NCBI GenBank assembly: GCA_024636355.1
Contig: JAGXHH010000037.1
Coordinates: forward strand, 1-33,641
Source of the DNA: Desulfobacteraceae bacterium
GTDB taxonomy: Bacteria > Desulfobacterota > Desulfobacteria > Desulfobacterales > Desulfosalsimonadaceae
Reading direction: 5' to 3'
DNA: 33,641 nt
Made by a program: the position numbers and the translations under genes
Notes under the pieces: generated by a model
The model's database searches: none
Told to the model about the DNA's origin: nothing
What the model saw: the letters and a program-made list of their open reading frames with translations, nothing else
In this document: positions 4,264 to 21,258 of the stretch, in pieces
Layout of the letters: each line of letters starts with the position of its first letter
Numbering within the stretch: the first letter of the stretch is position 1

Positions 4264-5628
4264 ATGGGAATACAATCTATTTCCGTCCTGGATGGACGCT
4301 ACCGGCATTATATGGACGGCCTCAATGATATCTTTTCCGAGTACGGCCTGATGAAATACCGGGTATTCGTCGAAATTCAGTGGTTGAAGTTCCTGATTTT
4401 CGAGCTCAAGGTAGAAGAAGTCGATGCCGGCCTTGTAGATTACCTGGACAATATCTTTGCGACATTTACTCCCGAGCGTGCGCTCGAGATCAAAGCCATT
4501 GAAAAACGGACCAACCACGACGTCAAGGCAGTAGAATATTATATTAAGCAGCAGCTCATCGATGGCGGCTTCGATTCAATAAAAGAATGGGTGCATTTCG
4601 CCTGTACATCAGACGATATCAATAATACCGCCTATGCCCTGATGCTGCAGGCCGGCCGGTCCCATATCGTCGAGAGTCTGAGCCGGGTGCTGGACAGGCT
4701 CGAAGTGTTCGCCAGAGAAAACAAATCGGCGCCGATGATGGCCCGAACTCACGGTCAGCCGGCCACACCGACAACGGTGGGCAAGGAATTTGTCAATTTC
4801 GCATGGCGGCTGCGCACGGAAATGGCAAAACTTGAGGCCGTTGAGATCGGCGCCAAATTAAACGGCGCAAGCGGCAATTTCAATGCGCACCATTGCGTGC
4901 TTCCCGAAATCGACTGGATTGCGGCGAGTCGACGTTTTTTGACCCATTACCTCGGGGTTGCCCCCTTGCTCTACACCACCCAGATCAATCCCTGCAATTA
5001 CATTTCCGAACTGCTGCAGGCAATGATCCGAATCGCCGCAATTCATATTGATCTGGACCGGGACATGTGGGGGTATATCTCTCTCGGTTATTTCAAACAG
5101 AAGCTCAAAGAAGGCGAAGTCGGCTCATCGACGATGCCGCACAAGGTAAATCCGATCGATTTCGAAAACAGCGAGGGGAATATGGGGCTGGCCATTTCGA
5201 TGATGGAACACGTGTCGGTCAAATTGTTGATATCACGTTTTCAGCGGGATCTGAGTGACAGCACCGTGCTGCGCAATCTCGGGGTCCTGTTCGGTTATGT
5301 CGAGGTTGGATTGAAAAGCACGCTTAAAGGATTGGACAAACTGGCCATCGATCGGATCGCTATCGAAAAGGATCTGGCGGACAATCTCGAACTGCTTGCC
5401 GAACCGATCCAGACGGCGATGCGGATGTATAAAGAAGACGAGCCATATGAAAAATTAAAGGCCCTGACCCGCGGGCGCAAGATCGACCGTGGGGATCTGG
5501 TTGACTTCCTTGACCGGCTCGAAGCCCTGCCCGATTCGGTAAAAAACCGGTTCAAACAGCTGGAAGTCACAGCATATACGGGACTGGCTGAAGAACTGGT
5601 GGATCAATATTTTTCAGAAATGAAGTAA
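4264..5628 (+). CDS. purB: adenylosuccinate lyase
   Basis: 454 aa with the fumarate-lyase signature GSSTMPHKVNPIDFEN. The length and N-terminal LDGRY...EY motif are typical of PurB. Confidence 0.95.
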   Translation: MGIQSISVLDGRYRHYMDGLNDIFSEYGLMKYRVFVEIQWLKFLIFELKVEEVDAGLVDYLDNIFATFTPERALEIKAIEKRTNHDVKAVEYYIKQQLIDGGFDSIKEWVHFACTSDDINNTAYALMLQAGRSHIVESLSRVLDRLEVFARENKSAPMMARTHGQPATPTTVGKEFVNFAWRLRTEMAKLEAVEIGAKLNGASGNFNAHHCVLPEIDWIAASRRFLTHYLGVAPLLYTTQINPCNYISELLQAMIRIAAIHIDLDRDMWGYISLGYFKQKLKEGEVGSSTMPHKVNPIDFENSEGNMGLAISMMEHVSVKLLISRFQRDLSDSTVLRNLGVLFGYVEVGLKSTLKGLDKLAIDRIAIEKDLADNLELLAEPIQTAMRMYKEDEPYEKLKALTRGRKIDRGDLVDFLDRLEALPDSVKNRFKQLEVTAYTGLAEELVDQYFSEMK

Positions 5629-5780: not shown

Positions 5781-5795
5781 TGGTACGGTTTTTGC
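5781..5795 (+). promoter_or_regulatory. candidate sigma-54 (-24/-12) promoter, TGGTACGGTTTTTGC
   Basis: Matches the TGGCACG-N4-TTGC spacing exactly (GG and GC ten nucleotides apart), with one mismatch in the -24 box. It lies about 160 nt upstream of the Roadblock gene, inside an AT-rich 329-nt intergenic region. Confidence 0.35.
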
Positions 5796-5957
5796 CAAAC
5801 CGATTTTTTAATTGATTAAATCCATTGAATGCGTTAACAATTAATTGCGTTTTCACGCGAAAACAGCGATTTGTAAAATGATCAGACCGTATTCAAAAGC
5901 ACCTGCCGTTTTGCGAGGAGAACGCTTCAACCGGGATTTCTAAAGGGATGGTAATTA

Positions 5958-6350
5958 ATGGATTTTACGATTGATTTTACAAAAGAGCAGATTGAATCCA
6001 TCGAAGATGTTCTTCAGGAGGAGTTAATCGACCTCGGCGTACAGAGCGTGATACTGATGGATCTGGCCGGAAACGTGATTGTCAATCTTGATAATGGCGG
6101 TACCAGTCATGACGTTTATTCTCTGGCGGCATTGGCGGCGGGCAATTACGGGGCGGTCAGCGCAATGGCCAATATAATCGGCGAGCAGGAATTTTCTTTG
6201 CTGTTTCATAAAGGCGAGGAAGAGAGCATTCACTTCAGCAAAGTAGTCGAAGATCTGCTGCTTCTCACCATTTTTAATAAAGACGTATCTCTCGGTTTTC
6301 TGCGTTTGAAAGTGACCGAAGCGATCAAGCGGATTCAGATGCTGATTTAA
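5958..6350 (+). CDS. Roadblock/LC7-domain protein (MglB-like)
   Basis: 130 aa. The pattern ...LGVQSVILMDLAGNVIV...AALAAGNYGAVSAMA...LLFHKGEEESIHFSKV...LLLLTIF is typical of the Roadblock/LC7 fold. It sits immediately upstream of an MglA-family GTPase, in the same order as the Myxococcus mglBA operon. Confidence 0.7.
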   Translation: MDFTIDFTKEQIESIEDVLQEELIDLGVQSVILMDLAGNVIVNLDNGGTSHDVYSLAALAAGNYGAVSAMANIIGEQEFSLLFHKGEEESIHFSKVVEDLLLLTIFNKDVSLGFLRLKVTEAIKRIQMLI

Positions 6351-6499
6351 TGGCATATCCCGCGGCCGGCGAAATCGGCCCCGCATTCCGTCTCAAAGGA
6401 CAGGACTGACGGCACACCAGAGAAGATGCAACGGCTGTTGAATGATATCGACGTTCAACGGGAGCGGATTTAACAATAAATGTTCCGGAGGATAGCGAT

Positions 6500-7105
6500 T
6501 TGGCGTTAATAAATCCGAAGAAGCGGGAAGTTCAGGTTAAAATTGTCTATTACGGCCCGGGTCGTGGCGGTAAAACGACGAACTTGGAATTCATCAACCG
6601 CAAATTCAAGAAGCGGATTCTCAACGAAATGGTCACGGTCAAGACCTATGGGGACCGGACTCTTTTTTTTGATTTTCTGCCGTTTGATATCGGAGAAATA
6701 AAGGGCCACAGCATTAAAATCCAGCTATATACCGTTCCGGGACAGGTAAAGTACAATGCCACTCGGCGCCTGGTGCTCCGCGGCGTTGACGGGATCGTCT
6801 TCGTTGCGGATTCCATGGATCTCCGCAGGGAAATGAACATTCGATCCCTCCAGAACCTGAAAGAAAATCTGGAATCGTTTAACAAAAATATTTTCAATAT
6901 CCCGCTGGTCATGCAGTACAACAAGCGGGATCTTTCCGAAGAAGGCATTCCCATTTTATCGGAGGACGCCCTGCAGAAAGATTTGAACAGCCGGCTGAAT
7001 GCCCCGTATTTTCCAGCCAGTGCCATCCGCGGGGACAATGTGGCGGCAACCATGAAAAAGATTATCGCATTGACGGTAAGTTCATTAAGAAAAAAACTGG
7101 AATAG
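6500..7105 (+). CDS. mglA: MglA-family Ras-like small GTPase
   Basis: TTG start with GGAGG 8 nt upstream. The N-terminus [28 protein letters not shown] aligns by eye with M. xanthus MglA ([28 protein letters not shown]). Also present are [10 protein letters not shown] (intrinsic arginine region), LYTVPGQV (Thr in place of the Ras G3 Asp, catalytic Gln) and QYNKRD (G4). Confidence 0.9.
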   Translation: [201 protein letters not shown]

Positions 7106-7117
7106 GAGGAAAGGCCA

Positions 7118-7846
7118 TTGGCGAAAACGGAAGATGATGGGGGCATCGGAGCCGAAGTGAGCAGCAGGCTCGATGAACTGTTCGGTGAAGACGATGGTTC
7201 GGAGGCCCCGGGTTTGGATGCAGCCCCGGCAAAATCTGTCGGTCCGATGAAATCCAAGCCGCAAGCGCACGCGGAACCCAATGGTAATGCCAACGATGCC
7301 GAAGGTTCGCCCGTCAAGAATTTAAAGGCGCTGGTATTTGGAATCGACTGGGAGATTACAGACGATTCGATGAGAGCATTCCTCAAAGAGGTCCGGCGCC
7401 TCCAGCAGAAGTATCCGAACGACCAAATTCTGTCGATGTTTCTCAAGCTGCATGAATCGATCGGTAAATACATCAAAGCCAAAATGGCCCGTGCCCATCC
7501 GGACGCCCTTAACTTTGTGACATCTGTATTCACGGCTTTCGAAAAAGTCCTTCTCTCTCCTGGAATGCCGGAAGCGCAGAAGAAAAAGTTGTTGAGCAGT
7601 GAAGTAAAGACGTTTAAGGACTTTAAGCAGCGGGTTTTGAGCCGGGATAAAGCGGTGGCGCATGCTGAACCGCAAATCGCTGCGCCAGTCGAAGCCCCGC
7701 CACGGCAGGTGGTGGCGCCCGCGGCAAAACCAGCGGTTCGCCTGGATAACCAGGAGGCCCTCGATTATATCGTCGAGGAACTCAAGAAAACGATCAAGGC
7801 CGAATTTCATACCATTCGGCAGATTCTGAAGAATCTGGGCGCCTGA
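7118..7846 (+). CDS. hypothetical protein with an acidic disordered N-terminus, a helical core and a Pro/Ala-rich segment, adjacent to mglA
   Basis: 242-aa ORF with a TTG start 12 nt after the mglA stop, preceded by GGAGGAAAGG. I recognise no family. The composition is coding-like, and the antisense ORFs here look like shadows. Confidence 0.65.
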   Translation: MAKTEDDGGIGAEVSSRLDELFGEDDGSEAPGLDAAPAKSVGPMKSKPQAHAEPNGNANDAEGSPVKNLKALVFGIDWEITDDSMRAFLKEVRRLQQKYPNDQILSMFLKLHESIGKYIKAKMARAHPDALNFVTSVFTAFEKVLLSPGMPEAQKKKLLSSEVKTFKDFKQRVLSRDKAVAHAEPQIAAPVEAPPRQVVAPAAKPAVRLDNQEALDYIVEELKKTIKAEFHTIRQILKNLGA

Positions 7847-8102
7847 GCCGTTTGCGGCCGACGGTGTAATGTAACTCCTTTTAGCATTAAAAAAGAATAC
7901 CAGGACGGCAAGGAAGAAAGCGATGCTGACTTACACCGTGTAAGTTGAGGCGCTAAAGACCAGGCCAATGAAGGCGGCTTTGCAATGCGACATGGAAAAA
8001 TTCCGGGTAAACGGGGCACGCCCCTTTATCATCGAAGCGCCTGAGCGCCGGTTTTCAAGATTTGGCCTGGCGAAGTTTATTAAATGGATCGGAGGCATTC
8101 AT

Positions 8103-8576
8103 ATGGCGAATATCTTTGCGGGTGACATCTCCAAGCTCGTTCTTAAGCGGACGGTCAGGGCTGATTTAGGGGAAGTGTCCCTGGACAGTCAGATGCTGCA
8201 CGTCATGATGGAACTCGATGGGCAAAAGACACTTGGGCAGGTTGCCCAGTCGTTGAACATGAACCTGAAAACCTTGCGCGCAATCACCGACCGGCTCCAT
8301 CAGCTTCGGCTCTGTGAATCCGCTAAAGACTCGATGCCTGTCTTGAGCCGGGATTTTTTCTCCGTCCTTTCGGCTGAATTGTCGAGAGCCATGGGGCCGA
8401 TCGCCGATGTGGTCATAGAAGATGAAATCAGTGAAATGGGTGAATCCCATAATCGTTTTCCGTTACATCGGGCGGCTGAACTCGTCGATGTTCTGGCCCG
8501 GCAAATCCTCAGGGAAGAGCGAAAAGTAGCCTTCCAGCAGGTAATGGTAAAAGAACTAAGGGGAATTGGCTCTTGA
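8103..8576 (+). CDS. hypothetical protein with an N-terminal winged-HTH-like segment and a C-terminal helical module
   Basis: The ATG at 8103 has GGAGG 7 nt upstream; the track ORF starts earlier, at 7968. LDSQMLHVMMELDGQKTLGQVAQSLNMNLKTLRAITDRLHQLRL looks like a MarR/TrmB-type wHTH. The C-terminus contains an ...AMGPIADVVIEDEI... helical motif. Confidence 0.6.
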   Translation: MANIFAGDISKLVLKRTVRADLGEVSLDSQMLHVMMELDGQKTLGQVAQSLNMNLKTLRAITDRLHQLRLCESAKDSMPVLSRDFFSVLSAELSRAMGPIADVVIEDEISEMGESHNRFPLHRAAELVDVLARQILREERKVAFQQVMVKELRGIGS

Positions 8577-8814
8577 TTGGCGCCGGTAAATTCCCGTCTA
8601 TTGCATTGTCGTGATTTTTCATTCGCTCAACGCAGGTTATCTATTTGTTCGCGCATGATAAAGCACTCCGCTCTGTAGATGAATCCCTTAATTTAGATGT
8701 TTTTTTACCCGTTTTGTCCTTTTTACGAGAGTATTGACTCTTGAGGAAACCACCAAAGATGAAAAAAGGGCGCACCTTTTTCATATTGTCAACTTTGAGA
8801 AGGAGGAGTTAACC

Positions 8815-9999
8815 ATGACGGTGATTTGCGAGGAATGCGGGAAGGTTTATCACGTCGACCCGGATAAGCTGCAGCGTTACAAAGGCAAAACCATTAAGGT
8901 ACGATGTGGTGAATGTGGTCATGTCACCCAGTTGTCGAGTGTTATGGAAACCACCGGGCAGTCTGCTGATGCCTATGAGGAACCGGTCGATTACAGTGGC
9001 CCCGCAGAAACGGAAACCCCTGCGCCCTCGGATTACATGCCGTCTTACTCCGACCCCCCCGCATCCCGTCCGAAACATTCCATGGGCGACAGCAAAAAGG
9101 GTTGGATCGGATTGCGGGGAAAAATGTTTTTTCTCTTCCTGGTCATACCGATCGCGCTGATGGCAGTTTCTGGCGTTTTATCCCAGATGCAGCTGAACGA
9201 TCTGGTCGCTGGCATTACACAAGAGAGTACCGAACTGGTCAGTGAGGCGGGTAAGGAGCAGCTGCTCCAGAAAGCCCGGGACGTTGCACTCCAGTGCGAA
9301 ATCTATCTGAAGGCACATCCCGAACTGGGGCGTGAAGATTACAGCTATGACCCGGAATTCAACCAGATTGCCGTGCAGAAAGTCGGCAAGACCGGTTATA
9401 CCTGCCTGATCCAGGAGCCGGAGGCGGATAAGGGACAGAACTGGACGATATGGGCGCATCCCAACCCAAATATTATCGGCATCGATGACATCGATATGAT
9501 CCGCAAAGCCCTTGGTCCTTATTTTGACGAATTCTTTGCGATATTGGCCCGCGCACAGGGGCGCAAGGAATCGACCGGCCCGTATATGTGGAAGGACCCG
9601 GATGGAAAAATCCGACCCAAATTTATGGCGATTTCCCCCGTTACGCTCGAAGACAAGCCGTTTTTGCTGATGAGTACGGCGTATATGGATGAGTTTACCC
9701 AGAAGACCGAAAGCCTGCGGGCCGATGCCATGGAATCGGCGACTCGGACCCGGAATATCAATCTGGGTATTTTAATTGTGGCTATCATTGTTATCGGTAT
9801 GTGCATCACGATTTACGGGTACCGGTTGACCCGGAACATTCAGTATCTTACCGAAGCGGCCGACCGCATCAGCGTCGGGGATCTGGAAGCCGAAATCGAG
9901 GTGAAATCCACGGATGAGATCGGCAGCCTTGCCGATGCCATTTCCCGGATGCAGGACAGCCTCCGATTCTCGATAGAGCGCTTGCGTCGTCGACGGTAA
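8815..9999 (+). CDS. membrane sensor protein with an MJ0042-type zinc ribbon, TM helix, periplasmic Cache-like domain, TM helix and HAMP domain, and no output domain
   Basis: The ATG at 8815 is preceded by AAGGAGGAG. The zinc ribbon is CEECGKVYHV...VRCGECGHV (two CxxC pairs). The hydrophobic helices are FFLFLVIPIALMAVSGVL and LGILIVAIIVIGMCITIYGY. The HAMP-like segment is NIQYLTEAADRISVGDLEAEIEVKSTDEIGSLADAISRMQDSL. The protein ends about 12 aa later. Confidence 0.8.
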   Translation: MTVICEECGKVYHVDPDKLQRYKGKTIKVRCGECGHVTQLSSVMETTGQSADAYEEPVDYSGPAETETPAPSDYMPSYSDPPASRPKHSMGDSKKGWIGLRGKMFFLFLVIPIALMAVSGVLSQMQLNDLVAGITQESTELVSEAGKEQLLQKARDVALQCEIYLKAHPELGREDYSYDPEFNQIAVQKVGKTGYTCLIQEPEADKGQNWTIWAHPNPNIIGIDDIDMIRKALGPYFDEFFAILARAQGRKESTGPYMWKDPDGKIRPKFMAISPVTLEDKPFLLMSTAYMDEFTQKTESLRADAMESATRTRNINLGILIVAIIVIGMCITIYGYRLTRNIQYLTEAADRISVGDLEAEIEVKSTDEIGSLADAISRMQDSLRFSIERLRRRR

Positions 10000-10019
10000 G
10001 TGCTCGATTCCTGGCAAAT

Positions 10020-10063
10020 AACACGCAATGCGTTCGCCGGTGGCGACGCATTGCGTGTTTTAT
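10020..10063 (+). terminator. rho-independent terminator-like hairpin
   Basis: Perfect 14-bp inverted repeat AACACGCAATGCGT (10020-10033) / ACGCATTGCGTGTT (10046-10059) with a 12-nt loop, followed by TTTTA, 20 nt after the stop of the HAMP gene. Confidence 0.7.
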
Positions 10064-10111
10064 CTACACCAGCAGCACGCAACAACTCCGCTTGGGGACA
10101 TGTGAGGTTCA

Positions 10112-11149
10112 ATGATAATCATACCACGTGAAAAGCCGGCCATTGAAAGTCTGAACAGCTATTACCTGAATATCAAAAAGTTGATCGAGCATTACCAGGG
10201 AGACCTTGGTGCAGGGGTGGTCCATTTCACCTCCCCGGTTGCCGAAGCAGTTCTGTTCTTTGATGAAGCCAATCTGGTCAATGGCCATTACGAAGATAAA
10301 AAGCAGACGATAGACGGTCAGGCGGCCATTGATCGGGTCATGGATCTGGCGGGGAAAAACAATTTTTCCGTTTCCGTTTTCCGGGTCATTCCGGAACGGA
10401 TTTATTTCTGGGCAAATTTGTCGAATTCCAAGGTCCTGTATAGTGATTTGTCCTCCGAATTTACAGACCTCGAGGCCCTGATCAAGAAGATGGAGGCTGA
10501 ACGGTTCACCGGTTATATCGACGTGCAGTTAACCGAAGAGAAAGCGGGCGGGCTCTTGTTTTTCTTCAATGGTGAGGTTATCGGCGGTTCTTCTGCTGCG
10601 GCCGATGGGGAGATCAACCGATCCGATGCCTACAGGGAAGACCTGATAAAACGTTCCCGTCAATCCGGCGGCAAATTCAGTGTGCATAAAATCTTCATGG
10701 ATGCCACAAACAACGTCTCAGTACCTGCCCGAAAAAAAACGGCCCCGCAAATTCCAAAACCCGCGGCGCCGGCAAAAACATCGAGTAAGACCCCCATGGA
10801 TTCGGCCCGTGTAGTTGAAATGTTGCGGGTTCTACTCGTCACAATGGAACAAGTGGTGCGCGGCAACAAGAAAATTCGGGTCGATTTTGAAACCCTTCTG
10901 AATAAAAAATTCGTGGAAAAAGCGGACCAGTATGAATTTCTTGATCCTTTTGCCGCTGAATTCCGCTATTCGGGTGGAAAGATTACGTATACCGGGAACA
11001 GCAGTCAGAAAGTGCTTGTGGAAGCTATTGTCGAGTGTACAGCCGAGATTGCTTCGGCTCTCGGCATCATGAACGAACTGCGGTTGCAGCTAAATCCGTG
11101 GCGCAACGGCTTTGCAGACGAAGTCATTGGATTTGATATCCGGCTTTAG
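10112..11149 (+). CDS. hypothetical protein with two DUF4388/PATAN-like modules and a helical C-terminal domain
   Basis: 345 aa. Two segments share the pattern G-x-V/L-x-F...A-x-L-F-F-d-E/G-x-L/V-x-G (GAGVVHFTSPVAEAVLFFDEANLVNGHY and FTGYIDVQLTEEKAGGLLFFFNGEVIGGS). This resembles the DUF4388 module seen in the next gene. The domain call is by eye only. Confidence 0.6.
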   Translation: MIIIPREKPAIESLNSYYLNIKKLIEHYQGDLGAGVVHFTSPVAEAVLFFDEANLVNGHYEDKKQTIDGQAAIDRVMDLAGKNNFSVSVFRVIPERIYFWANLSNSKVLYSDLSSEFTDLEALIKKMEAERFTGYIDVQLTEEKAGGLLFFFNGEVIGGSSAAADGEINRSDAYREDLIKRSRQSGGKFSVHKIFMDATNNVSVPARKKTAPQIPKPAAPAKTSSKTPMDSARVVEMLRVLLVTMEQVVRGNKKIRVDFETLLNKKFVEKADQYEFLDPFAAEFRYSGGKITYTGNSSQKVLVEAIVECTAEIASALGIMNELRLQLNPWRNGFADEVIGFDIRL

Positions 11150-11232
11150 ATAAGTCGGACCGTATAAAACAGCAAAATATTCACCGCCCCCGCTTTTGGC
11201 GCAGGCGTTACCGCCAGGATAGGAACTCCAGA

Positions 11233-12351
11233 ATGATACCGAAGGTATTGATCGTCGATGATGACCCGGCACTGCTTGGGTTGCTGGAAGAAGAACTCAA
11301 AGATTATGATGAGATGTTTTGTGTCCGAACCGCACTCGGCGGCCAGGCCGCGCTTGATCTGATGGACAGCGATTATTTCACTCTTGCCATCACGGATTTG
11401 CGGATGCCGGGTATCGACGGTTTCGAGCTTCTGAACCGGATTTCAACCCAGTATCCGGATATTCCCGTAATTGTCATCACCGGTTACGATCGACCCAAGA
11501 CCCGGGAAGTCGTCTTGAAAAGCGGTGCCGCCGATTATTTGACAAAGCCTCTTGCCAGTGCCAAGTTAGCCGCCCGGATCATCAAGGCTCATAAGAAAAT
11601 GGCGGAGGGGGGGAGTCTGAACAACGTTACCCTGGAAACGTATCTGCAGCTGGTAGAAATGGAACAGCAGACATGTACCTTGCGAATATCTGAAAAAACG
11701 GGCTTAATGGGGGTGCTCTTTTTTCGTGACGGGGAATTGATGGATGCCCGCTTCGGAAATATGAGGGGACGGGATGCCTCTTATGAAATTCTTTCCTGGG
11801 ATGGGGTTTCCTTGTCCATTGAAAACGCCTGTATCGTCAGTAGCAAGCAGATCACCGGCGAATTACAGGCAATACTGCTCGATGCGATGCGAAACAGGGA
11901 CGAAAGCCTTGATGTTGAAAACGATCTGCAGCGAGATGACGAAGATGAATCCGGTGGCGCCATTCTTCTCAGTGATCCGGTGAATGACAGGGCGGAGCCG
12001 GAGTCAGCAGCTGCCGCATCGAGTCCTCCAACTGCATTAAACAAATCCGTAGCCGCACCGTCCCCGTCGGATCAACCGGAGCTGACGCCGGTTGATCTTG
12101 TCCGGAAGAAACTGACCGATGCGCTGGGAAACAAGGGCGCCATTGAAGATGTCTACAGCGATTCACAGTGGAATGAGTTGATTTCCCAGGTGGAGGCTGT
12201 CGGGGAGATATTTGATGCCGGGACATTAAATGTTGTATGTTTAAACCTGGGTCGTACCGGTCAGCTGCTTATAGTGCCCGGCGACGAACCGGTTATTGCC
12301 GCATTGGATGCGGATGTCTCCCGGGACAGGGCCATTGGTGCGCTGATGTAG
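11233..12351 (+). CDS. response regulator with a receiver (REC) domain, a DUF4388/PATAN domain and a C-terminal uncharacterised region
   Basis: The REC domain has DD (9-10), the phospho-acceptor D55 (LAITDLRMPG), T83 and K105 (LTKP). It is followed by LETYLQLVEMEQQTCTLRISEKTGLMGVLFFRDGELMDARFGNMRGRDASYEILSWDGVSLSIEN, which is typical of DUF4388. There is no DNA-binding or enzymatic output domain. Confidence 0.85.
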   Translation: MIPKVLIVDDDPALLGLLEEELKDYDEMFCVRTALGGQAALDLMDSDYFTLAITDLRMPGIDGFELLNRISTQYPDIPVIVITGYDRPKTREVVLKSGAADYLTKPLASAKLAARIIKAHKKMAEGGSLNNVTLETYLQLVEMEQQTCTLRISEKTGLMGVLFFRDGELMDARFGNMRGRDASYEILSWDGVSLSIENACIVSSKQITGELQAILLDAMRNRDESLDVENDLQRDDEDESGGAILLSDPVNDRAEPESAAAASSPPTALNKSVAAPSPSDQPELTPVDLVRKKLTDALGNKGAIEDVYSDSQWNELISQVEAVGEIFDAGTLNVVCLNLGRTGQLLIVPGDEPVIAALDADVSRDRAIGALM

Positions 12352-12436
12352 AAGTCGCCCGCCATGTCTCGACATCGCCGCCAACGAAACAATGATTTGC
12401 GAATGATACTCAACCACCCGATACGGGACGCGCTTA

Positions 12437-12805
12437 ATGAAAGATATTTTTACAGACATACTTGGAATCGAAGGGGTCCATGGTGGTATTGTCTTGACCA
12501 CTGGAGGCTCTGTGGCCTTGAGCAGCTTTTCTGCTCAGTACCAGGACGAAGAGTCGGCAATATCCCGAGTTGACTGGAACGGCTTTACGCTGGAGCTCAC
12601 GGACCTTAAAGAAGCTGAATTTGTATTCGAGCAGATTCGACTTTATGTGAGAAAAACACAAGCGGGTCATCTGGTGATCGTAATGGATGACATCGCTCCG
12701 ATTTCCATGGTTCGTCTGAATTGTGAAATTCTGCTGCCTGAACTGGACCGGGTAAAGCCGGCCGGTAGTAAAATCGGTCAAATTCTCAGGAAGAAAATTT
12801 TTTAA
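12437..12805 (+). CDS. Roadblock/LC7-like small protein (second paralog)
   Basis: 122 aa. ILGIEGVHGGIVLTTGGSVALSSF...EFVFEQIRLYVRKTQAGHLVIVMD follows the Roadblock pattern (GV-x-G-x-hydrophobic...dG). The assignment is by eye. Confidence 0.55.
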   Translation: MKDIFTDILGIEGVHGGIVLTTGGSVALSSFSAQYQDEESAISRVDWNGFTLELTDLKEAEFVFEQIRLYVRKTQAGHLVIVMDDIAPISMVRLNCEILLPELDRVKPAGSKIGQILRKKIF

Positions 12806-13060
12806 ACCGCCCAAACAGTCCCGCAGCACCAATTTCCTGGTTTTCGATAAATGTTTGTCAACTGACATGACATGTCGCTACTCGGGAAAATTTCGACAAT
12901 TGCTCTGTCAATCGATCAATGGTTATCATATCCTCTGTTGCACTGATTATTCTGAGCCGGCGGAGAAAATCAGGCGCATAAAATTCATTTAAAAATAGAT
13001 TGCGGCTAACGGCCGCCTGAAATTACCGCATGCGGATTATCGTTAAAGGATTGCATCAAT

Positions 13061-15451
13061 ATGCAGCCCATGGCTGAAAAAAAAGATGTGGAATCGAAAA
13101 TCAAGACGGCTGAGGCCTATGAGTCCCACGGGCTGTACGATGAAGCGGTTTGTCTTTACCAGACCATTCTTTCCGATTATTCCGAGATCGACCCGGCCAC
13201 TCGCGCAAAAATTAAAGATAGACTCAGCGGATTGAGCCAGGAACTCGACGATCTCGATCAGGAGATGCCCCAGAATTTAACTTCTGAAGAAGTCACCCAT
13301 CTCAAAACCGGGCTGTCCATCGGTGAAAGTGTACCGGAAATCTGCGACAGCGCGATGGCTTTCAAGGAACTCGGACTCTACAAGGAAGCCGTCGAGGAAT
13401 ATCGGAAGCTATTCGGCACGGAATACCCGATTGATGATTTTTTCCCCGATCTTCTGGAATGCCTCTTTCTCCTTTCCCCTCCGGCTCAGGTGGTTGATGA
13501 AATCAGACAACTGATCAAAGCCCATGCGCTGGATGAAAAGCTTACAGCGTCGATTCATTACCAGCTCGGCCTGGCGCTGGAGCAGCGGGATCACAATAAA
13601 CTTGCGGTCGAATCTTACAAATTGGTTCAGAACATCGACCCGATTTATCCGAAAATCAAGGAAAAGATTGAAGCGGCAGAGCCGGGGCGCCAATTCGAGT
13701 CCCGTTACGATTATCTGCTTCGAAACGGCATCGTTACCACCGATCAGCTCCAGAAGTGTCTGGCCATGTCCAAGCAGCTCAGAAAGAGCGTTGAACATGT
13801 ACTGATGGACCAGTTCAAGGTACCCAAGGAACAGATCGGCAAATCCCTGTCCGCCTATTACAATTGTCCCTTCAAAGTATTTGATCCGGCCATGGAGGTC
13901 CCCTATGAGCTGCTGGCCAACCTGAAAAGACCGTTCCTTCTCCAGGATATATGGGTGCCCCTTCACTGGGAAATCGATCACATCGAAATTCTACTCGATG
14001 ATCCCAAGGATTTACGGAAACTCGATCATGCTAAAGCCCTTTTCAATACGAACAAGTTTACGTTTTCGGTCGGAACCCGGGAAGATATAGAAGCGGTCAT
14101 CAACCATTTTTTTGCTGAAAAAAAGACGCAGGTGGCTCATGACCGGGGCGAAACTTCCGATGGACTGACGGAAATGCCGGAGATCGCCTTTGAAGAAGAC
14201 GATGACGATGACGAGGAGGATCCTTTTGCGGACGCCTACACCGAAGCCTCCGGGAAAGTGGTGCGCCTGGTGGATCAAATCCTGATCTCAGCTTATCGAA
14301 AAAATGCGTCCGATATCCATGTTGAACCTTCTCCAATTACGAAACGGACAAAAATCCGGTTCCGTATCGACGGGGTCTGCCAGAACTTCACCGAAGTGCC
14401 GAATACGTTTTCCAATGCGCTGCTGTCCCGGCTTAAAATCATGTCCGGACTCGATATCGCTGAGCGGCGCATGCCCCAGGACGGCAAGATCAAGTTCAAA
14501 CGCAAAGGCATTCCCCAGTTTGAACTGCGGGTCGCCACTCTGCCGACCGCCGGCGGGTATGAGGACGCGGTGCTGCGTATCCTGGCCAGCGCCGGGGCCA
14601 TGAAAATAGATGAGATGGGCCTCAAGGAACGCAACCTAAGCGTGTTGAAACGTGCCATTCTCAAACCGTACGGTCTGATACTGGTTGTAGGGCCGACCGG
14701 TTCCGGGAAAACAACCACACTGCATTCGGCCCTCGGGCATATCAATACCCCGGAACGTAAGATCTGGACGGCGGAAGATCCTGTTGAAATTTCCCAGGAA
14801 GGATTGCGCCAGGTCGAGATACACAAGAAGATCGGACTCGATTTCGCCCGGATCATGCGGTCGTTTCTGCGTGCTGATCCTGATGTGATCATGGTCGGTG
14901 AAATGCGGGATTTCGAGACGGCTTCCACCGGTGTTGAAGCCTCTTTGACCGGTCACCTCGTGTTTTCAACCCTGCATACCAACAGCGCCCCGGAAACCGT
15001 CACCCGCTTGCTTGACATGGGGCTCAATCCATTGAACTTTTCCGATGCATTCATCTGCGTACTGGCCCAGCGCCTGCTCCGTCGACTTTGCAAGAACTGC
15101 CGGAAGGAATACCATCCATCAAAAGAGGAGTTCGATGATATTGTAAACGATTACGGTACGGAAGCCTTTTCCGAAACGGGGATCGCGTATACCGCCGACA
15201 TAAAAATCCATGCTCCGGTCGGGTGCGAACAATGCAGCGGTACCGGTTATAAAGGACGGATGGGCATCCACGAGTTGATGGAAGGGACAAAGGAAGTAAA
15301 ACGGATGATAAAGAAGCAGGCCAGCGCCGAAGAATTGTTCGTACAGGCAAAGAGCGAAGGCATGACGACATTGATACAGGATGCTATTCTCAAAATGTTT
15401 GATGGGTTGACCGATATGGGCGAAGTCCGACGGGTCTGCATTTCATCATAG
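13061..15451 (+). CDS. GspE/PilB-family type II/IV secretion ATPase with an N-terminal TPR-like extension and a T2SSE_N (MshEN-like) domain
   Basis: 796 aa with Walker A GPTGSGKTTT, Walker B/Asp box DPDVIMVGEMRD, His box VFSTLHTNSA and the tetracysteine motif CKNC...CEQC. The central domain LLRNGIVTTDQLQKCLAMSKQ...FSVGTREDIEAVINHFF resembles the GspE/PilB N-terminal domain. The first ~210 aa are helical-repeat (TPR-like), and an acidic linker EEDDDDDEEDPF follows the T2SSE_N-like domain. Confidence 0.9.
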   Translation: MQPMAEKKDVESKIKTAEAYESHGLYDEAVCLYQTILSDYSEIDPATRAKIKDRLSGLSQELDDLDQEMPQNLTSEEVTHLKTGLSIGESVPEICDSAMAFKELGLYKEAVEEYRKLFGTEYPIDDFFPDLLECLFLLSPPAQVVDEIRQLIKAHALDEKLTASIHYQLGLALEQRDHNKLAVESYKLVQNIDPIYPKIKEKIEAAEPGRQFESRYDYLLRNGIVTTDQLQKCLAMSKQLRKSVEHVLMDQFKVPKEQIGKSLSAYYNCPFKVFDPAMEVPYELLANLKRPFLLQDIWVPLHWEIDHIEILLDDPKDLRKLDHAKALFNTNKFTFSVGTREDIEAVINHFFAEKKTQVAHDRGETSDGLTEMPEIAFEEDDDDDEEDPFADAYTEASGKVVRLVDQILISAYRKNASDIHVEPSPITKRTKIRFRIDGVCQNFTEVPNTFSNALLSRLKIMSGLDIAERRMPQDGKIKFKRKGIPQFELRVATLPTAGGYEDAVLRILASAGAMKIDEMGLKERNLSVLKRAILKPYGLILVVGPTGSGKTTTLHSALGHINTPERKIWTAEDPVEISQEGLRQVEIHKKIGLDFARIMRSFLRADPDVIMVGEMRDFETASTGVEASLTGHLVFSTLHTNSAPETVTRLLDMGLNPLNFSDAFICVLAQRLLRRLCKNCRKEYHPSKEEFDDIVNDYGTEAFSETGIAYTADIKIHAPVGCEQCSGTGYKGRMGIHELMEGTKEVKRMIKKQASAEELFVQAKSEGMTTLIQDAILKMFDGLTDMGEVRRVCISS

Positions 15452-15565
15452 AATTTATTCGGGAACCGTTTATGTTGTTCCTATTATGCAGGAAACGGCA
15501 TACAGCGAGGCGTTTAATCCTCTCAGAATGCAGTTGAATTCAGATAAAAAAATGAGACGGACTGG

Positions 15566-16012
15566 ATGAGGAATTTCTTTCAGTGGCTAAAACGGATATG
15601 GCGTCCTTCGTGCCCCCCGTGTACTGCGCAAAACAGTCAGTCAGATCAGCGGGGATTTGACCGTTATGCCGTTTCCTTTCCGGTAATTATTTCCGGAAAG
15701 GACGTCAAAGGTGCAGAAAATCATGAAAAGACGGTACTGCACGATATTTCCGGCAGCGGCGCCATGTTCATGTCCCAGACCCCGGGAAAATATTATCCCG
15801 GGCAACTGTTGAAGGTATCCATAATGCTCGACGGCACCAATGATGTTCGTGCCCGGATCCGTACGGAGGCCACCGTTATCCGGATTCATCACAACGGGAC
15901 TTTGTTAACGGAAGTCCGTCCGGACGGAATGTCTACCGGCATCGCCGTACAGTTTGACCGTTCCTTTGAATTCGAGCGGATCGACAACAGTGATTACAGG
16001 TCAAATGGATGA
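15566..16012 (+). CDS. PilZ-domain (c-di-GMP-binding) protein
   Basis: 148 aa with RGFDR (RxxxR) followed about 30 aa later by DISGSGA (DxSxxG), the canonical PilZ c-di-GMP motifs. Confidence 0.75.
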   Translation: MRNFFQWLKRIWRPSCPPCTAQNSQSDQRGFDRYAVSFPVIISGKDVKGAENHEKTVLHDISGSGAMFMSQTPGKYYPGQLLKVSIMLDGTNDVRARIRTEATVIRIHHNGTLLTEVRPDGMSTGIAVQFDRSFEFERIDNSDYRSNG

Positions 16013-17121
16013 AATTGGCTTATAAAAGGACTTTTGAAACATTTTCCGGAAAGATCCGCGTCGCGCTGGCGCTAATGGCGGTGTTGCCCTGTTTGATCGT
16101 TATATACCTGTTTCTGGATGAAGGAATCGTACCGACGGATACGGTTTACCTTTTCGCTTCGCTGGCATTGCTTTCCATTTTTTCCGGTTTTGCGCTCCTC
16201 TGGCGGTCTGCTTTGCAGCTTTATTATTTAAGCTGCGAAACCGGAAAGCTCGAATCAGGGGAAAAACGGGATTCGATTCAAATTCAGGGGGATGACGAAG
16301 TCAACCGGATCGCCGCTCATTTCAACTCCCTGCTCAAGCGGCTCGAGGAAATGAAGCGGAAAAATCAGGATCAGGCCACGCAGTTAATGGTCTATGCCCG
16401 GGACCTTTCCCTTTCCTATCAGCGCACCAAGCGAGAAGAGGAACTGCGCAACCGCATCAGCCGCTATGTGGGCAATAACCTGGTTGAAAAACTGGTGAAT
16501 CTCAAGGACGGGGTTTTCCTGGAAACCGAACGGCGTTCGGTGACGGTTCTTTTTGCCGACATCCGTTCCTTTACGGCCATTGCCGAGCGCATGGCGGCCG
16601 AAGATGTGGTGCTGATGCTCAATCAGTATTTTTCGATTATGGTGGATTTGATTTTTAAGAATACCGGACTGCTGGACAAATTCGTAGGCGATCAGCTCAT
16701 CGCCGTCTTTGGTCTGGTCGATTCCGATACGAATCCGCCGGAAAATGCAATCCGGACGGCCATCGAGATGCAGGCGGCCACGGAAGAAATCATGAAGAAA
16801 AGAAAACGCAAAGGCCTGGAGACGTTTGACGTCGGTATCGGGATCAACACCGGAAATGCCATTATCGGCAACATCGGCTCGACGAACCGAATGGATTACA
16901 CGGTAATTGGTGATTGTGTCAATGTCGCAGCACGGCTGGAACAGATGGCCAAGGGCGGCGAAATTATCATCGGAGAACAGACCTATATCAATAATACCGG
17001 CAGCTTTCAATTCGAAAGCCGGGGCGAGGTCTACGTGAAGAACAAACTCGAACCTGTCGTCTGCTACAACGTCCTTGGAAACCAGGCGATCTCCTCATCC
17101 AAAGCGGCAATTCCCTCCTGA
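16009..17121 (+). CDS. membrane-anchored class III adenylate/guanylate cyclase (two TM helices, HAMP-like linker, cyclase domain)
   Basis: VTVLFADIRSFTAIAE, LDKFVGDQLIAVFG, GIGINTGNAIIGNIGS and DYTVIGDCVNVAARLE are class III cyclase motifs. Lys in DKFVGD and Thr in DYTVIGD suggest ATP specificity. The start ATG overlaps the PilZ stop (ATGA at 16009-16012). Confidence 0.88.
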   Translation: MKLAYKRTFETFSGKIRVALALMAVLPCLIVIYLFLDEGIVPTDTVYLFASLALLSIFSGFALLWRSALQLYYLSCETGKLESGEKRDSIQIQGDDEVNRIAAHFNSLLKRLEEMKRKNQDQATQLMVYARDLSLSYQRTKREEELRNRISRYVGNNLVEKLVNLKDGVFLETERRSVTVLFADIRSFTAIAERMAAEDVVLMLNQYFSIMVDLIFKNTGLLDKFVGDQLIAVFGLVDSDTNPPENAIRTAIEMQAATEEIMKKRKRKGLETFDVGIGINTGNAIIGNIGSTNRMDYTVIGDCVNVAARLEQMAKGGEIIIGEQTYINNTGSFQFESRGEVYVKNKLEPVVCYNVLGNQAISSSKAAIPS

Positions 17122-17295: not shown

Positions 17296-17393
17296 TGGCG
17301 GAAGTGCATGGGAATCGAACCCACCCGGGACGGTATTAACGCCCCACACCGGATTTGAAGTCCGGGAGCCCCACCAGTGAGCTGCGCACTTCC
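17296..17393 (-). tRNA. selC: tRNA-Sec (anticodon UCA)
   Basis: The reverse complement reads GGAAGTGC...CCGGA-CTTCAAA-TCCGG...GTGGG-TTCGATT-CCCAT-GCACTTCC-G-CCA. Features are an 8-bp acceptor stem, anticodon loop C-T-TCA-A-A, a long variable arm (GGGGCG/CGTCCC stem), a T-loop TTCGATT, discriminator G and an encoded CCA. It is closely parallel to E. coli selC (GGAAGATC...GGACTTCAAATCC...GATCTTCCGCCA). Confidence 0.92.
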
Positions 17394-17458: not shown

Positions 17459-18619
17459 ATGACAATGATCGACGACAAGGACCGACTGGGCCGGACATTC
17501 AAGTTCCTGGCAGGAATCGACAGCGTTTCCCGGGAAGAGGGGATAATATCTCAGGAAATCCGAAAAATCCTGGAGGAACTCGGAGCCGAGGTGTTTATCG
17601 ATGGCAGCGGCCGGCAGACCGGCAGCAATACCGGTAATCTGATCGCCAAGTTTGATGGCAATCGCAACGCCCCCATACTGTTGTTAAATGCCCACATGGA
17701 CACGGTCGAGCCGGGAAGGGGTGTCAAGCCCCAGTTCTCGGACGGTGTGTTTACGAGCGACGGCACCACGGTGCTGGGGGCCGATGATAAGAGCGCCATT
17801 GCCATCATTATAGAAGCCTTGCGGCTGATTCGCGAAAAGGATCTGCCCCACGGACCCCTGGAGGTGGTCTTCACTATCTGCGAAGAAATCGGTCTCCTGG
17901 GGGCCAAGCACCTCGACTACAGCCTGCTTGCTGCCGAGGTCGGCTATGCGCTCGATACAGCCGACACCGAAACCATTATCACCATGGCCCCGGCATCGAA
18001 TCGGTTCGACCTGACCGTGCATGGCAAATCGGCCCACGCGGGCGCCGATCCGGAACGGGGAATAAATGCCATCGCCATCGCCAGCAAAGCGATTGCAGGC
18101 CTGGAACTGGGCCGCATCGATTCCGAGACCACCTGCAACATCGGGTTTATAGAATGTGCAGGGGCAACCAATATCGTACCGGACCAGGTGCGGATCAAGG
18201 GAGAAGTCCGGAGTCATGACCTGGAAAAGCTCGAGGAGGTAACCCAACGGATCATTGCGGCATTTGATCAAACGGTGGAAAACTGGCCACAACGGGATGA
18301 CGCACAAGGCCTGCCCCATCTCACAGTTCATGTCGATAATGAATTTCCCGGAACGAATATTTCCGATTCCCATCCGGTGGTCCGACTGGCCAAAAAAGCT
18401 GCCGAAAATCTGGGGCGGCAGATCGTATCGAAAAAAACCGGCGGCGGCGCGGATGCCAACATCTTTTTTTCACGGGGAATCATTACCGGCGTGATCGGTA
18501 CCGGCATGCGCGACATCCACACGGTTCGGGAATGGATCCGGCTGGATGATATGGCCGAAACCGTTCGGCTGCTGCTCGAGATCATTCGCCTGCATGCCGA
18601 ACGGGAACCGATATCATGA
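17459..18619 (+). CDS. M20-family metallopeptidase (peptidase T / tripeptidase-like)
   Basis: 386 aa with LLLNAHMDTV, GADDKSAIA and ICEEIGLLGA (metal ligands His/Asp/Glu-Glu in M20 order) and a dimerisation-domain-sized insert. Confidence 0.8.
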   Translation: MTMIDDKDRLGRTFKFLAGIDSVSREEGIISQEIRKILEELGAEVFIDGSGRQTGSNTGNLIAKFDGNRNAPILLLNAHMDTVEPGRGVKPQFSDGVFTSDGTTVLGADDKSAIAIIIEALRLIREKDLPHGPLEVVFTICEEIGLLGAKHLDYSLLAAEVGYALDTADTETIITMAPASNRFDLTVHGKSAHAGADPERGINAIAIASKAIAGLELGRIDSETTCNIGFIECAGATNIVPDQVRIKGEVRSHDLEKLEEVTQRIIAAFDQTVENWPQRDDAQGLPHLTVHVDNEFPGTNISDSHPVVRLAKKAAENLGRQIVSKKTGGGADANIFFSRGIITGVIGTGMRDIHTVREWIRLDDMAETVRLLLEIIRLHAEREPIS

Positions 18620-19779
18620 TCGCCTACCTGGATTGTTTTTCCGGAATCAGCGGTGACATGACCCTGGGTGCCCTGGTGGATCTCGGGGTCCCCGTGGACT
18701 GGCTCGAAGACCGGATCAAGACGTCATTGTCATTAACCGGCTTTCGCCTCCAGGTTCGTACTGTTGACCGTTCGGGGATTTCCGCCCGAAAGGTTGATGT
18801 GATTGTCGATGATACGACCGAACGCGATTATGCCCGAATCCGGCAGATGATTCAAACGGGAAACCTTTCCGCCGCGGTTGCGGAAACGAGTCTGGCCATG
18901 TTTGCGCGCCTGGCCGCTGCGGAAGCAAAAATTCACGGCTGCCCGGCAGATGCGGTTCACTTCCATGAACTCGGCGGAGTTGATGCCATTGTCGACATTG
19001 TCGGTGCGGCCCTCGGGTTCGATTACCTGGGCATCAAAACTGTGCGGGCATCCTCGATTGCCCTGGGTTCAGGGACGGTGCGCTGTGCACACGGAACGCT
19101 TCCGGTACCGGCGCCCGCAACGGTGGCTATACTGGAGGGGGTGCCGGCATATGGCACCGAAAGCGGCTGCGAACTGGTGACGCCGACCGGGGCGACCATT
19201 GTCACCACCCTTGCCGAAGGATATGGTGTTCTGCCCGATATGGTGATCGAAAAAACAGGGTACGGGGCAGGGCACAGGGATCTGAAAGGCCGGCCGAACG
19301 TGCTTCGCATCATAACCGGCCGATTGGAAAGCGCTTCCGCTGATACCATGGAAATGGTGGAGACGTGCATTGACGATATGAATCCGGAGGTGTTCGGATA
19401 CGTAAGCGAACGGCTTTTCGGCGATGGTGCGGCCGATGTCTACATGGTGCCGGTCTACATGAAAAAGGGGCGACCCGGCACAATGTTGCAGGTGCTGTGC
19501 AGCCGGGCGAACCAGTCGGCGGTTATCGAGCGGATTTTAAATGAAACGACCGCCATCGGGGTGCGCCATTACAGTGTCCAACGACAGGTTCTGGAACGCT
19601 GCGCCGTGACGGTATCCACGCCGCTGGGTCCGGTTGCGGCCAAGCAAGTGAGAACCCCGGATGGAAACGTCCGTATTGCACCGGAATACGAAGCATGCCG
19701 GAAAATTGCGGCTGAAAAGAATCTGCCCGTTCAATCGGTTTATAATGCCGTTCTGCGGCATATCGGCCAGGGAAAATAG
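18616..19779 (+). CDS. larC: LarC-family nickel insertion protein (nickel-pincer cofactor biosynthesis, DUF111)
   Basis: The N-terminus MIAYLDCFSGISGDMTLGALVDLGVP and HFHELGGVDAIVDIVG are characteristic of LarC/DUF111. The start overlaps the peptidase stop (ATGA). Confidence 0.85.
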   Translation: MIAYLDCFSGISGDMTLGALVDLGVPVDWLEDRIKTSLSLTGFRLQVRTVDRSGISARKVDVIVDDTTERDYARIRQMIQTGNLSAAVAETSLAMFARLAAAEAKIHGCPADAVHFHELGGVDAIVDIVGAALGFDYLGIKTVRASSIALGSGTVRCAHGTLPVPAPATVAILEGVPAYGTESGCELVTPTGATIVTTLAEGYGVLPDMVIEKTGYGAGHRDLKGRPNVLRIITGRLESASADTMEMVETCIDDMNPEVFGYVSERLFGDGAADVYMVPVYMKKGRPGTMLQVLCSRANQSAVIERILNETTAIGVRHYSVQRQVLERCAVTVSTPLGPVAAKQVRTPDGNVRIAPEYEACRKIAAEKNLPVQSVYNAVLRHIGQGK

Positions 19780-19843
19780 AGACGAACTTTCTGCGGTAAA
19801 CAATGCCTTGACACGAGGTATGCCGGATTATAGAACCGTTTCC

Positions 19844-21067: not shown

Positions 21068-21258
21068 GCTTTTGCTTTTTACGAATTCATCAATACTTGA
21101 TGTATACCCGTTTTTTAAAAACTGTGTCAAATGACAATAGGGCATCGCCAAACCGGCACGGTTTTTTTGGCCGGCAACCCATGATCGGGACCGTGTTTCA
21201 CTTGCGGTGGGATGCGGTTGACGCAAACACCTTGGCGAAGATATTCAGGAGAACGACA

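Follow-up and report, generated by a model that had tools for sequence, protein, structure and literature searches.

The gene cluster and its products

The window analysed here is a stretch of 33,641 nucleotides (nt) from a Desulfobacteraceae bacterium (contig JAGXHH010000037.1 of assembly GCA_024636355.1), and its subject of interest is a cluster of eleven genes, numbered g01 to g11, that may control a pilus-type ATPase. The eleven open reading frames (ORFs) all lie on the + strand at 5958-17121. They are preceded by purB (4264-5628, with Lyase_1 and ASL_C domains) and followed by the tRNA-Sec gene selC on the minus strand (17296-17393). A sequence-only reading of the window had proposed eleven co-directional genes between purB and selC and had given each a label; every gene is present, and the labels were confirmed by the evidence set out below.

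The first gene, g01 (5958-6350), encodes an MglB-like Roadblock/LC7 protein of 130 residues. It matched Robl_LC7 in Pfam (E 5e-8), and its best NCBIfam match was the MglB model (E 3e-16, under the equivalog cut-off). MglB is the GTPase-activating protein (GAP) of MglA, and MglC is a second Roadblock protein that works with MglB. By analogy, g01 is the probable GAP of the small GTPase encoded 149 nt downstream (g02, 6500-7105, 201 residues), an adjacency expected of a group-1 MglA. The g02 product aligned with the solved MglA structures of Thermus thermophilus and Myxococcus xanthus (E 3e-50). It carries the P-loop GPGRGGKT, the arginine finger DRTLFF (within DRTLFFDF), the G3 motif TVPGQ (within YTVPGQ) and NKRD. 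Group-1 MglA proteins are distinguished by the G3 motif TVPGQ and an intrinsic arginine beside the G2 threonine (PMC4316618). Both the G3 motif and the arginine finger were invariant in 75 members of the g02 family. Judged by its motifs, g02 is a true group-1 MglA with all catalytic hallmarks.

The third gene, g03 (7118-7846), begins 12 nt past mglA, and the median mglA-g03 spacer was likewise 12 nt across 74 loci. Its 242-residue product had been called an unknown, a status that survived the search with hidden Markov models: we found 354 homologues but no match in Pfam, NCBIfam or PDB, including a profile search of PDB sequences. The protein consists of an N-terminal RLDELFG motif, a central domain of ~120 residues and a C-terminal helix. 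An AlphaFold model built from 18 sequences contained helices only and was of low confidence (predicted local distance difference test, pLDDT, 43), making it unfit for a fold search. Comparing the g03 profile with 1.84 billion cluster representatives recovered 967 clusters (50% identity level) at E <= 1e-3, of which 546 reached E <= 1e-30.

Many members of this family have 600-1350 residues and two to three copies of the central domain. The long forms begin with two tandem copies, continue with a linker composed of 25-32% Asp and Glu, and end with a third copy near the C-terminus. Within the linkers of the two long sequences that were read, P0245 and P0240, the motif R(L/F)D(E/D)(L/F)FG is repeated. 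Eight long forms scanned against Pfam yielded no significant domain, the only two sub-threshold matches both falling in P0240. One long form carries the Joint Genome Institute (JGI) name "FimV", probably owing to its acidic repeats. In all six readable contexts, the long form directly follows a Roadblock gene and a gene for an MglA of ~201 residues that is 62-74% identical to the window's MglA. These sequences place g03 as a short member of a large family that is tied to mglB-mglA and has no Pfam, NCBIfam or PDB match, and the family is a candidate new partner of this well-studied switch.

Giant acidic relatives of g03 (750-1350 residues) were observed directly 3' of Roadblock-MglA pairs in other lineages. 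They carry two to three copies of the g03 central domain and lie at 10001-13165 in locus L083, 10001-13732 in L084, 2515-6069 in L086, 1196-3457 in L087 and 455-4405 in L085. L083 and L084 also hold a PilC (T2SSF) gene ~5 kb upstream of the giant form, on the opposite strand.

The next two genes form a sensor pair. Gene g04 (8103-8576) encodes a small protein of 157 residues. The earlier label of a winged-helix-like protein was upheld by a weak match to HTH_47 (E 0.003) and by a homologue that exceeds the IclR-HTH cut-off; a homologue also has a precomputed match to DUF8082. Gene g05 (8815-9999) encodes a membrane protein with a cytoplasmic zinc ribbon, a disordered linker, a transmembrane (TM) segment, a Cache-like periplasmic domain of ~185 residues, a second TM segment and a HAMP domain, at which it ends without an output domain. 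The domains are those first ascribed to it: Zn_ribbon_4 (E 7e-9), HAMP (E 7e-13) and, weakly, Cache_3-Cache_2 (E 0.003), with MJ0042_CXXC above its cut-off in NCBIfam. Four cysteines and the HAMP domain were invariant in the g05 family, and the match to the GltJ N-terminus model was weak (E 0.001, 18 bits versus a cut-off of 450). Both ORFs open further upstream (7968 for g04, 8734 for g05). Homologue lengths (~157 residues for g04) and independent gene calls favour the start at 8103 over 7968 for g04, as first proposed, and indicate that g05 probably starts at M28 (8815). In three loci (L038, L040 and L044; for example, L044 1005-4460) the two genes are tandemly duplicated as a pair, which suggests that their products work together.

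Two PATAN proteins and a second Roadblock protein follow. The 345-residue product of g06 (10112-11149) itself had no Pfam match, and a profile search against PDB sequences returned nothing meaningful. Its family, however, matched DUF4388/PATAN in 10 of 23 members and DUF2226 in 5 of 23. The N-terminal halves matched each other in profile comparison (E 8e-5) and also matched the PATAN region of g07 (E 2e-5 and 1e-3). The family-level matches and the internal repeat uphold the proposed double DUF4388/PATAN protein, to which an unassigned C-terminal domain is added. Both domains of the proposed REC-PATAN response regulator g07 (11233-12351, 372 residues) were found: Response_reg at residues 5-116 (E 2e-26) and DUF4388 at residues 127-224 (E 2e-12). 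Its family keeps DD, D55 and K105, and the phospho-acceptor site is conserved. As in PatA-type proteins, PATAN, REC and a phosphorylatable Asp are combined in one protein.

For g08 (12437-12805, 122 residues), Pfam gave no match and a profile search against PDB sequences gave nothing meaningful. The AlphaFold model (pLDDT 84) showed the Roadblock order alpha-beta-beta-alpha-beta-beta-beta-alpha. Foldseek returned 79 PDB matches at E <= 0.001, led by LAMTOR, MglB, MglC and archaeal Roadblocks with probability 1.0. Four of 21 family members matched Robl_LC7, and JGI names some relatives Roadblock/LC7/MglB family. Since profile-profile comparison with g01 was weak (E 0.07), the assignment of g08 as a second Roadblock-fold protein, MglB/MglC-like, derives from the predicted structure, which agrees with the initial call. 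The C-terminus of g08 (12750-12805) is a conserved basic tail (ending GQILRKKIF, or FFKK in relatives) that is disordered in the AlphaFold model and could bind a membrane or a partner.

Gene g09 (13061-15451, 796 residues) encodes a PilB-type hexameric ATPase. It comprises a TPR arm (13061-13705), a degenerate MshEN/N1 region (~13706-14140) and the ATPase core (to 15451), with Pfam matches to T2SSE (E 6e-118) and MshEN (E 5e-10). Residues 216-796 are equivalent to a full-length PilB, and residues 218-789 align with residues 8-557 of M. xanthus PilB. The protein conserves GPTGSGKTT, DPDVIMVGEMRD, TGHLVFSTLHTN and CxxC...CxxC, and with them both Walker motifs (A and B), a His box and the Cys4 zinc motif. 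It therefore combines full-length homology, including the N1/MshEN region, with the motifs expected of PilB. The sequence-only reading had described a GspE/PilB-family ATPase with a TPR-like extension of ~210 residues; the extension is real and adds ~215 N-terminal residues that contain TPRs, with TPR_8 above cut-off when the arm was scanned alone. The arm was retained in 42 of 43 complete homologues and evolves faster than the core (34-48% versus 71-80% identity). A homologue search with the arm alone gave four matches and was uninformative about stand-alone arms.

The last two genes, g10 and g11, encode the PilZ protein and class III cyclase that had been proposed. The PilZ-domain protein g10 (15566-16012, 148 residues; E 4e-7) has the cyclic di-GMP (c-di-GMP) motifs RxxxR (RGFDR) and DxSxxG (DISGSG), conserved in 29 sequences. 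The membrane protein g11 (16009-17121, 370 residues) has two TM segments and a class III cyclase domain (Guanylate_cyc, E 2e-30). The metal-binding Asp, the substrate Lys (KFVGD) and the Asn/Arg of VNVAARLE are conserved. The substrate lysine is as in adenylate cyclases, and g11 is probably an adenylate rather than a guanylate cyclase. The two genes overlap by 4 nt in the window, as does the median pair across 25 loci.

Gene order in related genomes

To place the cluster in context, we compared gene neighbourhoods anchored on g03. Relatives of g03 occurred in 317 genomes, nearly all labelled Desulfobacterales, Desulfatiglandales or "Deltaproteobacteria". From species-level genomes we took 80 loci, or 81 with the window. 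Of these, 39 formed a near clade (g03 46-65% identical) and 41 a distant clade (32-39% identical). Three loci (L048, L050 and L054) have a typical Desulfobacterales-type module in metagenome-assembled genomes labelled Pseudomonadota, Bacteroidales and Anaerolineales; these labels probably reflect binning contamination rather than horizontal transfer.

Every assessable near-clade locus contained all eleven genes (27/27 to 39/39, depending on the gene). However, the housekeeping genes mutS, amiC and purB were as syntenic as the module, and near-clade conservation alone is therefore uninformative. Taken by itself, this finding would fit chance or inherited synteny without functional coupling. The distant clade makes that explanation highly improbable: it keeps g01-g09 collinear and on one strand but has none of the housekeeping flanks, which is a strong argument. 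While near-clade clusters are flanked by mutS, amiC, purB and selC, distant clusters are preceded by genes for EF-G, Smr and acetyl-CoA hydrolase and followed by one for GidB, or else have a sigma-54 regulator and a small kinase upstream. Presence in the distant clade was 28/31 for g06, 28/31 for g07, 25/29 for g08 and 18/26 for g09. The mglB gene g01 was found in 74 of 74 assessable loci, with ~90% identity in near-clade and 65% in distant-clade loci. Intergenic gaps were short, with medians of 12-140 nt. Dissolution of the neighbourhood in related genomes had been named as grounds for abandoning the idea of a module; instead, the order of g01-g09 is kept in two clades with unrelated flanks.

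The proposal of an eleven-gene unit needs trimming. The nine genes g01-g09 belong to both clades, but PilZ and cyclase genes were missing from all 23 assessable distant-clade loci, while g10 was present in 28 of 28 near-clade loci. The g10-g11 pair is an add-on of the window's clade. At the other extreme, three distant loci (L053, L056 and L057) hold only mglB-mglA-g03, from which it follows that this trio can function without the rest. The cluster is thus nested, with the trio inside a nine-gene core and the core inside the eleven-gene version of the window's clade.

An alternative is that the cluster is not one device but three separable units that are co-located and perhaps co-regulated, namely the trio as a general polarity unit, g04-g05 and the PATAN/Roadblock/ATPase genes, with MglA acting mainly on targets elsewhere. 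Besides the three loci with the trio alone, another lineage has a trio in which g03 is a giant form, and the rest of the module is missing from its vicinity. The tandem duplications involve g04 and g05 jointly, and in the window each of g04, g05 and g09 is preceded by a gap of 238-256 nt that could accommodate a separate promoter. Set against this, the three parts remain joined, with order and strand unchanged, in two clades whose flanks are unrelated, and the placement of Roadblock g08 beside the ATPase and of PATAN beside MglAB matches known functional links. We regard separate units as unlikely.

The distant clade also qualifies the statement that the cluster lacks a histidine kinase. This is true in the window, where no histidine kinase was found, but the lack is specific to its clade, and relatives' clusters carry kinase genes. 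In the distant clade, the REC-PATAN gene is directly preceded by one for a PAS-PAS-HisKA protein that has no ATPase domain, with a 4-nt overlap in L070. Some distant loci have a GAF/PAS hybrid histidine kinase of 1100-1235 residues between g08 and the ATPase gene, and some have a sigma-54 response regulator and small kinase upstream of mglB. Kinase-bearing loci include L070 (13842-14903), L039 (6587-7681 and 9159-12494), L065 (11706-15413) and L067 (6544-8843). Between mglA and mglB, L053 has a gene (8019-9209) that joins PATAN (DUF4388, E 3e-19) to a cyclic-nucleotide-binding domain (E 5e-23). This gene is an independent link among cyclic nucleotides, PATAN and MglA, and it makes the window's putative adenylate cyclase look less accidental. 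Together, the L053 gene and the kinases beside REC-PATAN and ATPase genes point independently to signalling inputs as part of the unit.

A possible control module for the ATPase

We propose that the cluster is a sensor-to-motor control module for a dedicated PilB-type pilus-extension ATPase, built on an MglA/MglB switch, and we give this interpretation a probability of about 0.5. Conservation and domain identities are observed, and the contacts and gating we infer from characterised systems. At the base of the module, the MglB protein g01 would act as GAP, while the MglC-like g08 and g03, the latter presumably translationally coupled to mglA, would tune or localise the switch. With g04 as its partner, g05 would use its zinc ribbon and linker to hold the switch at the membrane, where the local state of MglA would be coupled to a periplasmic signal. 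A precedent is GltJ, whose zinc ribbon binds MglB and whose linker binds MglA-GTP (PMC11135422).

MglA-GTP would dock on the TPR arm of g09, the arm thereby serving in cis as an adaptor like SgmX. In Myxococcus, polar placement of PilB requires the TPR protein SgmX, which binds MglA-GTP (PMC7519303, PMC7668184, PMC11580455); direct SgmX-PilB contacts were not detected there (PMC11580455). The PATAN proteins g06 and g07 would engage the N-terminal domain of g09, in the manner of PixE, whose PATAN domain binds the N-terminal half of PilB1 as well as PilC (bioRxiv 10.1101/2021.06.11.447907). Phosphorylation of the g07 REC domain would toggle the PATAN-ATPase contact. As output, the ATPase would be recruited to, or activated on, a type IV filament machine whose genes lie at another site in the genome. 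Second-messenger input in the window's clade would come from the PilZ protein, by binding c-di-GMP, and from the cyclase, by forming cAMP, and the embedded kinases of other clades would have been lost.

Several observations weigh against this proposal. The ATPase g09 scored 513.5 bits against the TIGR02538 PilB model, whose cut-off is 675.65, and 461 bits against the NCBIfam GspE model, whose cut-off is 630. The c-di-GMP motif of MshEN domains is a tandem 24-residue RLGxx(L/V/I)(L/V/I)xxG(L/V/I)(L/V/I)xxxxLxxxLxxQ. Compared with M. xanthus PilB, both motifs of g09 have the Arg, Gly and Gln replaced (SRYDYLL..., SVEHVLM...), and the NCBIfam model of the c-di-GMP motif scored 21.3 bits versus a cut-off of 38; judging by these residues, no c-di-GMP binding by g09 itself is expected. 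The likeness of the arm to SgmX lies in its TPRs, which are generic. The order of REC then PATAN in g07 is the reverse of that in PatA and PixE. Neither Pfam nor NCBIfam detected a GYF domain in g05, leaving it without the ZnR-linker-GYF composition of GltJ. The ability of the trio to function alone counts in the same direction. Finally, PilC, pilin, PilM-Q, PilT and a second PilB/PilT-type ATPase were absent within 10 kb in the window and the 80 related loci. The sequence-only reading had made this point for the window, where we found no pilin motif, PilC or PilT, and it holds in 81 of 81 loci.

These points bear on whether the ATPase powers a motility or adhesion pilus at all. It might instead serve another type IV filament-like or secretion process, such as a pseudopilus exporting surface or nanowire proteins, or act as a filament-less nucleotide-dependent signalling protein. 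The scores under both equivalog cut-offs, the degenerate MshEN region and the consistent absence of adjacent pilC, pilT and pilMNOPQ fit such a role. Furthermore, many carriers are Desulfobacterales, for which the literature searched gave no link between MglA/MglB and motility and, for sulfate reducers, no paper linking them to MglA/MglB. Yet the best full-length matches of g09 were type IVa pilus PilB proteins (E 3e-107), ahead of GspE (E 1e-88), and MglA, a TPR element, PATAN and PilZ are all known from type IV pilus control. We consider a non-pilus output rather unlikely on this balance.

The same homology could be read conventionally, with g09 as the organism's only housekeeping PilB and its neighbours as a lineage-specific regulatory neighbourhood that involves nothing mechanistically new. 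Full-length PilB homology with all catalytic motifs kept would be expected in that case, and MglAB-PATAN neighbourhoods have previously been catalogued. However, g09 stands apart as a distinct subfamily by its obligatory TPR fusion, by an equivalog score under the threshold and by its degenerate c-di-GMP motifs, and the g03 family is without a match in Pfam, NCBIfam or PDB. A plain housekeeping PilB is accordingly improbable.

The control-module proposal can be extended to a more specific but tentative possibility that combines two of its parts, and which we hold to be doubtful as a whole. The g03 family would be an unrecognised third core component of MglA/MglB in Desulfobacterota, and the TPR-PilB fusion would be a 'Rosetta stone' for direct action of MglA-GTP on the ATPase. 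Translationally coupled to mglA, g03 would be a polar anchor or a regulator of the nucleotide state of MglA. Its family, spanning single-domain forms of 240 residues to acidic three-domain forms of more than 1300, would resemble polar hubs of the FimV/HubP type. If so, the nine genes would constitute a complete, self-contained route from a periplasmic signal to polar pilus assembly.

Surroundings of the cluster and comparison with known systems

The remainder of the window is housekeeping. Its other large ORFs encode MutS, an amidase, an M20 peptidase, LarC, PgpA, LigT, RecA, AlaS, an SBP, DapB, an NTP-transferase/kinase, PlsB and NamZ. The mutS gene (32-2107) has an in-frame TAG at 1025-1027, where six relatives carry CAG (Gln) or GAG (Glu). 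The reading frame resumes unchanged past the TAG, and the orthologue in L081 is an intact MutS of 889 residues. By comparison with these sequences, the TAG would be either genuine, a nonsense mutation that might confer a mutator genotype, or an error of sequencing or assembly. The PgpA ORF (19661-20302) overlaps the LarC ORF by 119 nt (region 18616-20302) and its PgpA domain begins at residue 72, while 62 residues precede the RecA domain in the RecA ORF (21097-22341). The true starts of PgpA and RecA are probably downstream of the listed ORF starts.

A search of the intergenic regions for riboswitches and other RNA elements found only tRNA-Sec, and simple promoter and terminator scans gave no excess over shuffled expectation. 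We considered a sigma-54 promoter (TGGTAC-N5-TTGCC, 5781-5796) because a site occurs at this position and a sigma-54 regulator lies upstream in some relatives. The candidate was rejected: the number of such sites in the window was below chance expectation, and just 1 of 73 loci had the motif ahead of g01. Two antisense ORFs on the minus strand, 6646-7533 (295 residues) and 12434-12868 (144 residues), were judged artefacts because they overlap homology-supported genes (mglA/g03 and g08, respectively) and have no independent support. A naive longest-ORF caller chooses these antisense ORFs over the real mglA/g03 and g08.

Parts of the cluster have been noticed before. PMC4316618 credits Makarova et al. 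2006 with noting MglA/MglB-PATAN neighbourhoods. Table S2 of Wuichet and Sogaard-Andersen 2014 (PMC4316618) records MglA/MglB-PATAN neighbourhoods with a 201-residue MglA in Desulfatibacillum and Desulfobacterium, including Dalk_2485 of Desulfatibacillum alkenivorans, with the layout '<MglA<MglB-<PATAN'. As in the window, mglA, mglB and PATAN are co-located in these surveys. The entries in that table and citation record only MglA, MglB and PATAN, however, and not the g03 family, the sensor pair, the second Roadblock or the TPR-PilB fusion. The literature searched held no description of the TPR-PilB fusion, the g03 family, the sensor pair or the nine-gene arrangement. The earlier suggestion that the arrangement has no experimentally characterised counterpart needs qualifying: the MglA/MglB-PATAN association had already been reported bioinformatically (PMC4316618), and the arrangement is not wholly unprecedented.

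Among characterised systems, the actinobacterial conservon CvnA-D resembles the cluster in combining a small GTPase, a Roadblock protein and a membrane sensor in one operon. Unlike the cluster, it has group-2 MglA-like GTPases without an arginine finger, a true histidine kinase and DUF742, and it has neither PATAN nor the ATPase. M. xanthus GltJ, and with it the zinc ribbon of Caulobacter ZitP, shares with g05 an N-terminal MJ0042-type four-cysteine ribbon, a disordered linker and a membrane span, and here this protein is encoded with mglA and mglB. In contrast to GltJ, g05 lacks GYF and has an extracytoplasmic Cache-like sensor and HAMP instead of being a TonB-like Glt component. The Synechocystis proteins PixE and PixG, which bind PilB1 and PilC, share with g07 a PATAN domain and a phosphorylatable REC, encoded here with a PilB-type ATPase. 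The window differs from them in having REC-PATAN rather than PATAN-REC order, an extra double-PATAN protein without REC, and an MglA switch as partner in place of a chemotaxis-type (Tax/Che) operon.

The cluster also compares with the MglA/MglB/SgmX control of type IVa pili in M. xanthus, which also involves MglC, RomR/RomX, FrzS and SopA. Both pair a group-1 MglA with a Roadblock GAP encoded next to it, and both have another Roadblock paralogue (MglC in M. xanthus), a TPR element linked to PilB, and response-regulator input. The domain-annotated genes of the window and of the sampled flanks included none identified as RomR-, RomX-, FrzS- or Frz-like. SgmX is a separate protein with 14 TPRs, whereas the presumed counterpart here is fused to the ATPase, all partners are in one cluster, and a g03-family protein is coupled to mglA. 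Because each link in the proposed mechanism has experimental precedent, we read the cluster as a compact form of type IV pilus activation under MglA control and not as a new category. It hints that Desulfobacterales regulate their behaviour on surfaces, and it bears on how PilB is delivered to its machine by MglA and SgmX in Myxococcus. With a TPR-PilB fusion encoded alongside MglA, a pair of Roadblocks, PATAN adaptors and a sensor that has a zinc ribbon, the cluster offers a minimal, genetically compact system suited to testing direct coupling of GTPase to motor and the role of PATAN outside cyanobacteria.

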